Notes: generated by a model not told the origin, from the sequence alone. Positions 14,136-17,575 are shown, counted from the stretch's first letter. The stretch: 64,000 nt of DNA from a virus (IMGVR_UViG_2711768037_000005:3040-67039); one strand, 5' to 3'. Program-made: numbers and translations.

Positions 14136-16244
14136 ATGTCTAAAAAACGATCTATCAAAGAGATTCAAGACTTCCGTGACAGTGTAAAACGAGTAGTCGC
14201 TCTTCTTTCTGGTAAAAACATCCCTGTTGCAGAACGAGGGGACGACGCTTATGTACGCTATAACGATGATGGAGAGCCAATTCTCGTAAACATCCCATCA
14301 ATCCCGGATAACGCAACACCGGCATTGATGAATGCTGTGCGCGGATTTCTCGATCATGAGGTTGCTCACATTTTGTTTACCGATATTCGTGTGTCCAACA
14401 AAATGAGAGAAAAAGGACGCGTTCCTTCCTGGTCGCTATGGAATGCCTTAGAAGACGTGTTCATCGAGCGAAAAATGGGGCAGGTCTTTAACGGAACAAG
14501 ACGTAATCTGATGGCAACTCAGCGCCTTATAATCGAAAAAGTCTTTAAACCAAAGGCTTCAGAGGCTATTGCTTATTGTGGCAAAGATCAGCGCGCGCTT
14601 TTTCTAAACTTCTTTCTCTGTCCGGTTGTAAGAGCCTGGGATGGCCAAGCACCGTTCGTTGATTTCATGGATGAATACTGGCCTGTCATTGAGAAACCAA
14701 TTTCATTATTAAAAGAACATGGTATCGATGTGGCCGTGCGTAACATGTCTTGCACCGAGGATTGTGTAAAGGTGGCTGCGACCATAGCTAAGATCCTCAA
14801 AGACACTGAAAGTGAAAGCAAAGGTAAGGAGTCAGCTCCGGGAAAAACTTCCGATCCTTCAGACGCTGACCAAACGGATGCCTCTGGAGAAAACAATGAA
14901 GACAACGGAGATCATGAGACACCCAAGGCGTTAGATAATCACAAATCTATCAAACCAGAATCGAACAGTAACCACAAACATGATAATAACGACAGTGATG
15001 ATTCAGATAATTCTGAATCATCAGAAACAATATTCGATGATACAGAAAATGATAACGAGGTATCAGATTCTGATGCTTCTGATAACGCGGCGTCAGAATC
15101 ATTAACCGCTGACCACGAAAAAAGAAAAACGACAGAAGACGGCTCTTCAGATATTCCAACTCCGTCAAAAATGAGTCTGGAAGAGGCTTTAGAGGAGCTG
15201 GATAGCATAGAAGATGAAGTCGGAGGCATGACAGAAGATGCTCTATCCGAAACGATTAAAAGCGAGTTAACAGAAAGCTCGAAAAGCGAATACAGGCCAT
15301 ACAATCGCTCATACGACTTCATCGGCTCGATTGATCAGGCAGAAGCCCATATCAAACGGCTTATTAAAACATTCTCCGATATTGATTTAGGAGAATATCC
15401 AATCAGCCGCTATCGCATCGTTCCTGAAGGCAACCAGCTCTTCGACAAATATATTGAAAAGCATCTTTCGTCAGGTGTTTCGTCGACGCTGGCAAAAGAC
15501 CTGGAGCGAGCAATAGCAAGCAGAAACAGAGTTCAGTTTATACCGGGCCAGCGTCGGGGGCGCATTCATGGTTCTAGTATCTACAGATTAGCAATGAATG
15601 ATGATCGCGTGTTTCGTAAAAAAGAAGAATCTAAAGCCGTTAACGCCTGTGTTCAACAAGTGATTGATTTATCAGGTTCAATGAGTGGTATAACGATACA
15701 GTTGGCTCTTGCAAGTGCATATACCATCGCCGATGCCCTTGATCGAATAAATGTTCCCAACATTATCACCGGCTTCACTACATTTGGTAGTCATATGGCG
15801 GCAGGAGAACTTAAGGCTGTCAAGTATGAGTTCTCTCGCTTTGAATCTTTAATGCTACCTGTCATCAAAAATTGGAATGAAAAGGTAAATTCTCGCGAAG
15901 TTCGCTCACGTATGGGGTGCGTAGGCTACACATTCCCACTTCTTAATAACGTGGATGGTGAAAGCATAGCCAGCCTTGCATCGTTATTTTCAGGTCGCAT
16001 GGAGGACAGGAAGATCATGCTTGTTCTGAGTGATGGCGCGCCGTGGGCTGTTGGGAGAGGTTTTGACGCCCATTTGCGTTCGGTTGCTAAGCAAATTGAA
16101 ACGCAGACTGACATTGATTTGATGGCAATTGGCATCATGACTGACGCACCGGAGAGATTTTACTCAAATCATGCCCTGGTAACGAGCGTTGATAGTCTTG
16201 GTTCATCTGTAGTTACTGAACTATCTCGTATCATTTTGAAGTGA
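14136..16244 (+). CDS. CobT-like von Willebrand factor A (vWA) domain protein
   Basis: 702 aa; central acidic low-complexity D/E/S-rich region; C-terminal vWA MIDAS motif DLSGSMSG; immediately upstream of an AAA+ ATPase. Confidence 0.65.
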   Translation: MSKKRSIKEIQDFRDSVKRVVALLSGKNIPVAERGDDAYVRYNDDGEPILVNIPSIPDNATPALMNAVRGFLDHEVAHILFTDIRVSNKMREKGRVPSWSLWNALEDVFIERKMGQVFNGTRRNLMATQRLIIEKVFKPKASEAIAYCGKDQRALFLNFFLCPVVRAWDGQAPFVDFMDEYWPVIEKPISLLKEHGIDVAVRNMSCTEDCVKVAATIAKILKDTESESKGKESAPGKTSDPSDADQTDASGENNEDNGDHETPKALDNHKSIKPESNSNHKHDNNDSDDSDNSESSETIFDDTENDNEVSDSDASDNAASESLTADHEKRKTTEDGSSDIPTPSKMSLEEALEELDSIEDEVGGMTEDALSETIKSELTESSKSEYRPYNRSYDFIGSIDQAEAHIKRLIKTFSDIDLGEYPISRYRIVPEGNQLFDKYIEKHLSSGVSSTLAKDLERAIASRNRVQFIPGQRRGRIHGSSIYRLAMNDDRVFRKKEESKAVNACVQQVIDLSGSMSGITIQLALASAYTIADALDRINVPNIITGFTTFGSHMAAGELKAVKYEFSRFESLMLPVIKNWNEKVNSREVRSRMGCVGYTFPLLNNVDGESIASLASLFSGRMEDRKIMLVLSDGAPWAVGRGFDAHLRSVAKQIETQTDIDLMAIGIMTDAPERFYSNHALVTSVDSLGSSVVTELSRIILK

Positions 16245-16339
16245 ATAAAACAGCCTTAACGATAAGTAACTACTTACGATAGCTAATGGTATATTTATAT
16301 AAGAAGTTGAACGCTCATTAGAGAACAAAGGAAAAACGC

Positions 16340-17575
16340 ATGACGACTACTGCACTGCAAAATGAAAAAAATCCTTCTGATTACCTTGTTTGCAAGTGGT
16401 GCGGCAAATCATTTCACTATTTTAAGTCCCATGTAGCCAATGGTAATTGCGAGGGCATTCCTGAGTCAGTAAAAGATGCCGATCCTGACACCGTACTGAA
16501 AATGTACACAACGCAGTTTCCAGATGAGCCAACGCTATCGAAAAAGGCACTTGATGCAATTCAAGCTAAACGTGCCGAGCAAAAAAGCGAAATGGCCAAA
16601 TCTTCTGGCTTGACCAGTAGCCCTGGCTACACAGGCACAGTTGAGTACAAGACAGATCTGGTCGCAGCTCACGAACTGCTAAACGTAACAGTGGAAGAAC
16701 TCGGAACAAAACGTGGGACGCCGCTCATGGTTAGCGTCAACGTCAATACGCCGTATCCAGAGTTCGTTCCAGAAGTGAAGAAGGGCTACGTATATGGCGA
16801 CTTCGAACTGATCAAAGATATTTTCATGATGCTTGAACTTGGCATACCTGGCTATTTGTGGGGTCATGCAGGAACAGGCAAATCGTCATTGCCTACACAG
16901 CTATGTGCTTTGCTCAATCGTCCGTTGATCCGTGCCCAACATACAGCATCAATGGAAGAGACACATGTTACGGGGCAAATTCTGGCGCGTGATGGCTCTA
17001 CGTATTTCGAGCCTGGCTTGCTTGCGCTCGCAATGAAGCATGGCTGGGTTTACCTCGCGGATGAATACGACTTTGCGTTTCCACAGATTCTTGGCGTGTA
17101 TCAGCCAGTGCTGGAAGGTGAAGCGTTGGTCATCAAAGAGGCGACTCCAGAATGGCGTCGCATTACTCCGCATGAACGGTTTGCTTTCATTGGCACTGGC
17201 AACACGAACGGATCTGGTGATGAAACCGGCTTGTACCAGGGTACAAACATCCAGAACGCCGCGAACTTTTCGCGTTTTGGCATCGTTTCGAATGTGAAAT
17301 ACATGAGCAAAGAGGCAGAGATCAACATGTTGATAAATGCCGGTATCGTGGATGAATACGCAGAAAAGATGGTTAAGTTTGCCGGTATCGTTCGCGATGG
17401 ATACGAAGAACACCTTATCAGTCAGCCAATTGGCCCTCGTGAACTTTTGTTGTCGGCCAAGATTGGAATGATGCGAGGCGACTTTGTGACAGGTATTGAA
17501 CGTTCTTTCATTAACAAACTCCCTTCAGCTTCTGCACAAGCGGCTCGTGAAGTTGTTCAAAAAATATTTGGTTGA
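16340..17575 (+). CDS. CobS/MoxR-like AAA+ ATPase
   Basis: 411 aa; Walker A GHAGTGKSS, Walker B VYLADEYD; N-terminal CxxC zinc-ribbon-like segment (CKWCGKSF...H...C). Confidence 0.65.
   Translation: MTTTALQNEKNPSDYLVCKWCGKSFHYFKSHVANGNCEGIPESVKDADPDTVLKMYTTQFPDEPTLSKKALDAIQAKRAEQKSEMAKSSGLTSSPGYTGTVEYKTDLVAAHELLNVTVEELGTKRGTPLMVSVNVNTPYPEFVPEVKKGYVYGDFELIKDIFMMLELGIPGYLWGHAGTGKSSLPTQLCALLNRPLIRAQHTASMEETHVTGQILARDGSTYFEPGLLALAMKHGWVYLADEYDFAFPQILGVYQPVLEGEALVIKEATPEWRRITPHERFAFIGTGNTNGSGDETGLYQGTNIQNAANFSRFGIVSNVKYMSKEAEINMLINAGIVDEYAEKMVKFAGIVRDGYEEHLISQPIGPRELLLSAKIGMMRGDFVTGIERSFINKLPSASAQAAREVVQKIFG

Follow-up and report, generated by a model that had tools for sequence, protein, structure and literature searches.

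Why does a phage-type element carry a pair of genes resembling cobaltochelatase subunits directly beside its replicative DNA polymerase? This question is raised by a viral stretch of 64,000 nucleotides (IMGVR_UViG_2711768037_000005:3040-67039, hereafter the window), in which the genes for a CobT-like protein and a CobS-like ATPase occupy positions 14136 to 17575. Our analysis indicates that the pair is a distinct variant of the CobST/MoxR-VWA kind and that it is, with near certainty, not a cobalt chelatase. Given a conserved HExxH motif, a zinc finger of a DNA-binding type and the company of replication genes, remodelling or cutting of DNA-associated proteins appears more likely than the making of vitamin B12. 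We propose, at a probability of roughly 0.4, that the two proteins constitute a DNA-tethered, ATP-driven remodeller or protease acting on a DNA-associated client. The two proteins and their parts are located as follows.

14136-16244, plus strand: CobT-like adaptor of 702 amino acids (aa) (Pfam CobT and CobT_C; phrog_1576, E 2.4e-300).
14136-14831, plus strand: N-domain, aa 1-232 (helix, three-stranded sheet, helix bundle; order of elements as in the solved CobT_N).
14355-14369, plus strand: HEVAH zincin motif (H74-E75-x-x-H78), with E106 or E111 on the next helix as candidate third ligand.
14844-15149, plus strand: disordered acidic linker rich in Ser and Asn, aa 237-338 (predicted local distance difference test score, pLDDT, below 50; composition).
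15519-15644, plus strand: segment equivalent to the CobT 'shaft', aa ~462-503 (aligns to Q373-R413 of 9uka_G).
15645-16241, plus strand: VWA domain with intact MIDAS (D511, S513, S515, N605, D633).
16340-17575, plus strand: CobS-like MoxR-class AAA+ ATPase of 411 aa (AAA_5; phrog_249, E 4.6e-106; PDB CobS, E 1.8e-25).
16385-16564, plus strand: Ros/MucR-type zinc-finger domain, aa 16-75 (C18-x2-C21-x9-H31; FPDEPTLS motif).
16763-17572, plus strand: AAA+ module, aa 142-411 (Walker A 175-182, Walker B 237-244, C-terminal ExxQ[KR]xFG).

Because profile searches return the CobT and CobS/MoxR families and not unrelated ones, the resemblance to cobaltochelatase subunits recorded in the initial annotation stands, and its reservation that the two proteins might fall into unrelated families is removed. 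The CobT-like protein matches Pfam CobT over aa 9-294 (E 1.8e-26) and the CobT_C VWA domain over aa 492-701 (E 2.6e-82), and its profile finds the solved CobT, 9uka_G, with an E-value of 1.8e-61. The CobS-like protein matches AAA_5 over aa 173-293 (E 2e-15), its best solved relatives being cobaltochelatase CobS, followed by midasin, CbbQ and NorQ. At the level of sequence comparison, the Pfam and PDB E-values of both proteins rule out chance.

The architecture of CobT, consisting of N-domain, acidic linker, shaft and VWA domain with MIDAS, is fully present in the viral protein. Its AlphaFold model (mean pLDDT 81.7, predicted template modelling score 0.75) comprises two well-folded domains connected by a disordered acidic joint, in which Asp plus Glu reaches 36% per 80-aa interval; the linker of canonical CobT measures ~90 residues. 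Within the shaft segment G471, G475, L482 and F493 are conserved. An alignment of 50 diverse homologues revealed that D511, S513 and S515 of the MIDAS motif D511-L-S-G-S-M-S-G are invariant and that N605 and D633 are near-invariant, and in a Foldseek search the VWA domain matched those of NorD (E 6e-8) and the MIDAS domain of MDN1/Rea1 (E 1.4e-7), the range reported for these systems being 6e-8 to 1.6e-7. The description of a 702-aa protein with an acidic core and a C-terminal vWA MIDAS was exact in its coordinates, with Pfam and alignment in agreement.

It is the N-domain that sets the viral protein apart from canonical CobT. CobT_N was reported to resemble peptidase M48C, with one helix, a three-stranded sheet and eight helices (bioRxiv 10.64898/2026.07.21.739949), and the viral N-domain is modelled with the same order of elements at a pLDDT of 92.1. 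The HExxH motif is located on the predicted helix 62-81, with E106 and E111 on the following long helix 97-117; as modelled, this combination of an HExxH helix and a downstream Glu helix is the gluzincin arrangement. A HMMER search with aa 1-230 against 1.84 billion cluster representatives yielded 1137 proteins with E<=0.001, 475 of which had E<=1e-10. Among the 128 full-length CobT-like representatives obtained from the best 150, which share less than 50% mutual identity, 127 contain HExxH at the equivalent place, typically as F-[LIV]-D-H-E-[VIC]-[AG]-H. Moreover, G70, D73, H74, E106 and E111 are invariant in the N-domain alignments, and E75, H78, N103 and D107 are invariant or nearly so.

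The solved CobT was read at this position by means of a chimera, in which residues 1-92 of the window protein were fused to the 9uka_G stretch and used in a PDB search. The resulting alignment places NAVRGFLDHEVAHILF of the window protein opposite IAVTRGLGDSMALRQA of 9uka_G, with H, E and H corresponding to S, M and R. As seen in the core of the alignment (RGFLDHEVAH versus RGLGDSMALR), the N-domain of the solved CobT is degenerate, whereas the viral one is not. HExxH is likewise present in the CobT of phage ICP2 (HECYH), in the 'peptidase' of P-SSM2 (HEVGH) and in the Rhizobium phage protein; the P-SSM2 'peptidase' is a true relative, since hhalign aligns it to the CobT-like protein over shaft and MIDAS with a probability of 97.3%. 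The CobT-like protein of Pseudomonas phage ZY21 (6847-8931 of its stretch) has lost the HExxH histidines (FLDSEISKVLY), with MIDAS and gene order kept, and the zincin site, if catalytic, is therefore dispensable in some phages. Foldseek of the N-domain against the PDB gave no significant match, and a PDB sequence search with the N-domain alone returned only chance matches to HLA and SOD.

We next consider the CobS-like ATPase. Walker A (GHAGTGKS, 175-182), Walker B (LADEYD) and candidate Arg residues are intact and invariant among 28 homologues, which reach down to 44% identity. An N-terminal Cys cluster had been pointed out in the ATPase that follows the CobT-like gene, and C18, C21 and C37 are indeed present, accompanied by H26 and H31. 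All 28 homologues share C18, and nearly all of them C21, H26 and H31, followed by a conserved Y...FPDxPTLS; the pattern C-x2-C-x9-H-x4-6-[H/C] occurs in 93 of 113 full-length relatives, and several of the others carry Asp in place of the second Cys. Since homologues of Ros, a 58-residue beta-beta-beta-alpha-alpha Cys2His2 DNA-binding domain, often use Asp as second ligand, these variants fit the Ros family. In line with this assignment, Pfam ROS_MUCR (PF05443) matches 11 of the 28 relatives at E<=1. One relative (P0058) attains 28.8 bits at a gathering score of 25.4, its residues 3-60 aligning to positions 64-120 of the model, the zinc-finger DNA-binding part, and a second (P0050) attains 25.3 bits. 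The CobS-like protein of the window itself gave no PF05443 match in the Pfam scan; a profile of the N-termini of the distant relatives matches it with an E-value of 2e-14. In its finger, a 12-residue insertion at the usual position of the last His carries C37, which, judging from the alignment, may replace the fourth His ligand.

The alignment with canonical CobS (328 aa) begins only at CobS residue 39, opposite residue 142 of the viral protein, which indicates that the viral ATPase has gained ~100 N-terminal residues. The CobS proteins of ICP2 and of cyanophages possess other N-terminal extensions with no recognised domain. On plasmid pSBC2-2 of Caballeronia sp. SBC2 (3750-6810 of its stretch) we observed a CobS-like ATPase with a WGR-like N-domain adjoining a CobT-like VWA protein that lacks HExxH, away from cobalamin genes; this pair represents a further branch of the family that is not a chelatase and whose head, putatively for binding nucleic acids, is of a different type. 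A CobT from a Caballeronia megaplasmid was dropped as canonical reference, as it belongs to a non-cobalamin pair of a WGR-MoxR protein and a VWA protein without HExxH.

Do the two proteins act together? In the solved CobSTN complex the CobT shaft (Q373-R413) enters the pore of the CobS ring, and the interface is formed by D263, E308, Q311, R312 and E317 in the small subdomain of CobS and by R34, R76, D80 and N130 of CobT (bioRxiv 10.64898/2026.07.21.739949). E308, Q311 and R312 of CobS correspond to E404, Q407 and K408 of the viral ATPase, the viral consensus ExxQRxFG being close to canonical EFYQRAFG, and D80 and N130 of CobT correspond to the invariant D73 and N124 of the window protein. The hydrophobic patch A322-V326 of CobS has no viral counterpart because the viral ATPase ends earlier, and the pore-side segment R-x-QHT...EE..G is unlike canonical CobS, yet invariant among the viral homologues. 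As far as the alignments tell, the polar contact residues joining CobS to CobT are partly conserved, and the conservation of shaft and interface residues suggests that the CobS-like and CobT-like proteins likely form a complex. In the holoenzyme CobN is held between CobT_N and the MIDAS face of CobT_C (2026 CobSTN preprint); in the phage, another client would have to occupy this slot.

Several lines of evidence argue against cobalt insertion. Tested against the NCBIfam equivalog models, the CobT-like protein scores 68.8 bits (TIGR01651; cut-off 759.05) and the CobS-like protein 85 bits (TIGR01650; cut-off 558.55), thus missing the cut-offs 6-11-fold. The window contains no open reading frame (ORF) of CobN size, dnaE being the sole ORF above 800 aa. 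Likewise, nothing is annotated as CobN or cobalamin-related in the close relative Escherichia phage Cyrano (108-kb genome, 126 annotated features), where the ribonucleotide reductase is annotated as alpha and beta subunits and no B12-dependent enzyme is annotated. The lack of cobalamin context claimed in the initial annotation consequently applies to the window and to a fully annotated relative. E. coli is not known to possess CobN or de novo synthesis of the corrin ring. Salmonella and Klebsiella employ the anaerobic CbiK route. In Cyrano, the genes CYRAN_47/48 (20136-23575 of its stretch) equal window positions 14136-17575 and are labelled 'dimethylbenzimidazole phosphoribosyltransferase' and 'cobalamin synthetase'. 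Both names describe what the Salmonella proteins CobT and CobS do, to which the viral pair is unrelated, and the labels are name-collision errors; the same mix-up of CobT/CobS names is found in the text of a roseophage paper (PMC11288001).

The window is part of an SSU5-family phage-plasmid, as follows from its identity to sequenced members and plasmids and from a gene order common with described members. Over 3.8 kb around the pair it is 98.2% identical to Cyrano (the phage-plasmid pLF82 of E. coli LF82), 99.1% to E. coli plasmid NZ_CP027369 and 74.7% to Salmonella phage SSU5, and 464 plasmid records match the pair region at the DNA level. A tblastn search with the VWA domain matched 1023 plasmids, among them pMT1 of Y. 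pestis CO92, with Klebsiella (347), Escherichia (229), Acinetobacter (147), Enterobacter (92), Yersinia (63) and Salmonella (49) as genera. The pair lies beside a replicative polymerase, as had been noted, and a small ORF is placed between them.

17572-17781, plus strand: 69-aa ORF with four cysteines (Cys4; C7, C21, C24, C30) and a TTG start (phrog_6337, E 2e-45), termed orf69.
17756-21274, plus strand: DnaE-type Pol III alpha (PHP, DNA_pol3_alpha, finger and HHH_6 domains).

Loci of relatives were gathered from contigs encoding homologues and by tblastn of phage records; a search of viral contigs for related loci yielded close SSU5-type relatives only. Two metagenomic phage contigs (45% identity) display the order integrase, HTH (helix-turn-helix), CobT, CobS, (sigma-like), small protein, DnaE, gp32, exonuclease and RecA. 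In Pseudomonas phage ZY21 and Rhizobium phage RHph_N1_10 (35-37% identity) helicase, primase and ligase precede CobT and CobS, which are followed at some distance by DnaE and further on by exonuclease and RecA; RHph_N1_10 has an annotated single-stranded DNA-binding protein (SSB) in the same block. The order shared at 35-45% identity thus reads ligase-[int/rep]-CobT-CobS-(sigma)-Cys4-DnaE-SSB-exonuclease-RecA. Beyond the DnaE lineage, the pair precedes helicase and PolA in the ICP2-like podophage JSF27, is arranged as CobS-hyp-CobT-2 hyp-polymerase-primase/helicase (hyp, hypothetical protein) in a Cobavirinae phage, and occurs in P-SSM2 as 'peptidase' and cobS between gp47/gp46 and gp45/gp44. 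The pair hence travels with replication and recombination genes alongside three polymerase types. This layout is compatible with a role at the fork, and early or middle expression timing could equally give it.

How might such a module work? As part of the early/replication gene string of an SSU5-family phage-plasmid, the pair would represent a phage-type CobS/CobT motor-adaptor module, composed of a MoxR-class AAA+ hexamer and a CobT-like adaptor, that inserts no cobalt. Six N-terminal Ros/MucR-type zinc fingers would hold the ATPase ring on DNA. By analogy with cobaltochelatase, the adaptor N-domain would dock on the small subdomain of the ATPase and the shaft would enter the ring pore. Between the adaptor N-domain and the MIDAS face, CobN would be replaced by a protein client, an acidic residue of which would bind the MIDAS metal, and ATP-driven pulling of the shaft would dislodge or unfold this client. 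Since the viral N-domain keeps the HExxH...E zinc site, the client would probably also be cleaved by the zincin site in most lineages. The likeliest class of client would be a protein bound to phage DNA during replication or recombination, be it an obstacle of host origin or a part of the replisome. A narrower version, in which the pair is no metabolic gene pair but an AAA+-driven, DNA-tethered metalloprotease that clears or processes proteins on replicating phage DNA, as a viral equivalent of SPRTN/Wss1 with p97, and canonical CobT is its catalytically dead descendant or sibling, we consider rather doubtful. Of the two options offered by the initial annotation, the evidence leans to replication-associated remodelling over host interference.

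The initial annotation was also right that the role of such pairs in phage-type elements is not established, as the literature holds proposals only. A boost of B12 was proposed for ICP2 by Seed et al. 2011 (PMC3037004). Liu et al. 2021 found cobST widespread in tailed viruses and suggested a hijack of CobN and a B12 boost (PMC8651126), and this has become the usual reading (PMC8651126, PMC3037004, PMC11705849). Iyer et al. 2021 recognised a MoxR plus metallopeptidase-vWA pair in T4-like jumbo phages and proposed that it serves virion assembly. Later papers call the function of viral cobST 'unknown' (e.g., PMC9983427). No experiment on any viral CobST was found in the literature searched.

Among the alternatives, host takeover or counter-defence would imply that the pair captures and destroys a host defence factor, a nucleoid protein or a part of the host replisome early in lytic growth. 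This explanation, which overlaps the favoured one if the target is DNA-bound, is unlikely, since entire phage families carry the pair almost without exception and in a single copy (~1 copy per cyanomyophage genome), which is unusual for counter-defence genes of fast turnover; in marine cyanomyophages the pair ranks among the core auxiliary metabolic genes. Furthermore, no PADLOC or anti-defence family was matched: a known family of this kind was rejected as a candidate because PADLOC gave only a marginal DrmE match across the acidic linker, which was judged to be due to chance.

A function in virion assembly, as put forward for the pair of the group 2.2 jumbo phages by Iyer et al. 2021 (PMC7824862), is quite improbable here. 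A zincin motif would suit a maturation cleavage, but in all lineages examined the genes sit amid replication and recombination functions, a long way from those for head and tail, which argues against such a role. The structural genes of Cyrano occupy 0-27 kb and its pair maps to 43-46 kb, and a DNA-binding-type finger on the ATPase would be unexpected in the assembly of capsids or tails.

A similarly small chance is given to a chaperone that inserts a metal cofactor, like NorQ/NorD, which supplies iron to NO reductase, or CoxD/E, with the DnaE PHP domain, NrdB or the Cys4 protein as candidate clients. In its favour, the VWA domain is structurally nearest to the NorD and MDN1 MIDAS domains, the ATPase is related in sequence to NorQ and CbbQ, and phages of the DnaE lineage invariably have a gene for a conserved Cys4 protein between those for CobS and DnaE. 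However, insertion of a cofactor leaves the conserved HExxH and the zinc finger unexplained, and the pair accompanies three polymerase types, with the ICP2 and cyanophage loci examined lacking DnaE or an annotated Cys4 protein.

Finally, it is barely credible that the pair is an auxiliary metabolic gene set whose products join host CobN and raise cobalamin, e.g., for B12-dependent nucleotide reduction: the homology to CobS and CobT in sequence and architecture speaks for it, but apart from the missed cut-offs, the lack of CobN, the reductase type and the host pathways given above, the conserved HExxH and the DNA-binding-type finger play no part in chelation, and the pair resides on >1000 enterobacterial and Acinetobacter plasmids.

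The genes surrounding the pair complete the picture. The Cys4 gene orf69 overlaps the cobS stop by 4 nucleotides and the dnaE start by 26 nucleotides. Homology links its product to the N-terminal part of a 167-180-aa protein encoded directly upstream of DnaE in four distant phages (the two metagenomic phages, ZY21 and RHph_N1_10), the shared motif being G-C-[FY]-G-x11-13-C-x2-C-x5-C. A comparable Cys spacing is known from the [4Fe-4S] sites of WhiB-like proteins and DNA enzymes. A Pfam scan of the Cys4 proteins matched no family. The possibility that orf69 is the remnant of a sigma-70-like gene was rejected, since BLASTP revealed no similarity and the Cys4 protein upstream of DnaE matches instead. 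Such a sigma-70-like gene lies directly 3' of cobS in distant relatives (L082, 11182-11856, translationally coupled; L088, 10209-10844) and not in the window, which hints that the string also carries transcription takeover functions. In the precomputed annotation, the DnaE proteins of relatives end in a C-terminal domain of the uracil-DNA-glycosylase (UDG) superfamily (PF03167), which points to a possible polymerase-UDG fusion in this phage group; at the C-terminus of the window DnaE (20696-21271) the corresponding match is sub-threshold (E 0.0015, 19.1 bits versus 24.3).

From left to right, the window contains four tRNA genes, an acetylesterase-like ORF, an integrase, a divergent HTH repressor, orf70, the cobT-like and cobS-like genes, orf69 and dnaE, followed 3' of dnaE by a UvsY-like gene, a gp32-like SSB and a 5'-3' exonuclease. 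Two of these genes flank the start of the string.

13190-13576, minus strand: HTH repressor-like gene (phrog_8 transcriptional regulator, E 8e-12; labelled 'putative repressor' in Cyrano), transcribed divergently from the cobT-cobS-dnaE string.
13824-14036, plus strand: 70-aa ORF (phrog_2627) that opens the rightward string and is not kept between lineages.

The AT-rich gap between the repressor and orf70 (13577-13823) contains repeated ATGATATA-like words (gatATGATATAgataag ... attATGATATAagat), which may represent operator sites of a switch controlling the cobT-dnaE string. A small third subunit encoded 5' of cobT was considered and rejected, as the sequences of the 60-76-aa ORFs found there in six lineages do not align. 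No intrinsic terminator was predicted between cobT and dnaE. Because the promoter and terminator scans gave site numbers not above those in shuffled sequence, the operon call rests on the gene overlaps and the absence of a terminator.

Upstream of the integrase, the tRNA genes (8919-9743, plus strand) are Asn-GTT, Tyr-GTA, Thr-TGT and Ser-TGA; Cyrano is annotated with three (Asn, Thr, Ser). The ORF of 637 aa at 9970-11883 (plus strand) contains DUF1737, a SASA sialate-type SGNH acetylesterase domain (E 2e-11) and DUF6645. The interval between tRNA genes and integrase holds different small genes in Cyrano, namely glutaredoxin and hypotheticals, and the acetylesterase-like ORF is a cargo-like insertion beside the tRNA cluster. 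In addition, Cyrano harbors a hicA/hicB toxin-antitoxin pair between dnaE and the UvsY-like gene (27263-29239 of its stretch), where the window has a gap of 125 bp (21275-21399).

Why does the distinction matter? Few viral auxiliary metabolic genes are listed as often as cobS, which feeds ecological statements on viral vitamin-B12 metabolism, and the same pair is present on widespread clinical SSU5-related phage-plasmids, including Y. pestis pMT1. If the pair does serve DNA replication or the clearance of proteins, these annotations and the inferences drawn from them would need correcting, and DNA-bound proteins would turn out to be the target of an AAA+/VWA/zincin machine of a new type. The question is directly testable, since the E. 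coli and Salmonella phage-plasmids offer easy genetics in a host without CobN. The pair in itself is not a new discovery, as it is already catalogued (in PHROGs, as NCBI 'cobaltochelatase CobT-related protein' and in two comparative papers) and nearly identical to sequenced elements. What sharpens the picture beyond the initial annotation is the conserved HExxH, the Ros/MucR character of the finger and the recurring position in the replication module of unrelated phages.

How, then, does the pair compare with known systems? Its closest kin is the viral cobST or 'MoxR plus metallopeptidase-vWA' group (PMC8651126; PMC7824862; PHROG 249, 1576, 459), to which it belongs and which is exemplified by CobS and 'peptidase' of T4-like cyanophages, by orf41/42 of ICP2 and by haloarchaeal viruses. 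In the portions available, the published accounts of viral cobST make no mention of the ATPase finger, the contrast to solved CobT or the recurring replication position. With CobSTN (PDB 9uka/9ujv series) the pair shares a MoxR-class AAA+ protein with a C-terminal ExxQRxFG and an adaptor built of an M48-like N-domain, an acidic disordered linker, a shaft and VWA/MIDAS. In contrast to CobSTN, it comes without CobN and without a cobalamin pathway in a replication-module context, and its adaptor has HExxH where canonical CobT has SMALR. The ATPase differs from CobS by its ~100 additional N-terminal residues with the Ros/MucR finger, by the lack of the last ~13 residues and by the H2-insert region, which reads QHTxxxEE instead of canonical NLDSHVSR.

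Like the viral pair, NorQ/NorD, CbbQ/CbbO and Rea1 (MDN1) combine a MoxR- or dynein-class AAA+ ring with a client-gripping VWA/MIDAS protein that the ring pulls; unlike it, they lack a zincin domain, such an acidic linker and a DNA-binding domain, and their clients are metabolic enzymes or pre-ribosomes. The N-terminus of the ATPase resembles the Ros/MucR finger (PF05443) in its pattern C-x2-[CD]-x9-H-x4-H and in its match to the DNA-binding part of the model (positions 58-120). However, it forms part of an AAA+ ATPase, in phages that infect gamma- and alpha-proteobacteria, rather than being a stand-alone alpha-proteobacterial regulator, and the window finger has an insertion and a displaced fourth ligand. 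The repair of DNA-protein crosslinks by SPRTN/Wss1 and p97/Cdc48 brings together, at replicating DNA, a protease of the HExxH kind, zinc modules that bind DNA and an AAA+ motor. Our searches found no sequence or fold relationship between these proteins and the viral pair, so that they provide a functional analogy for the proposed mechanism only.

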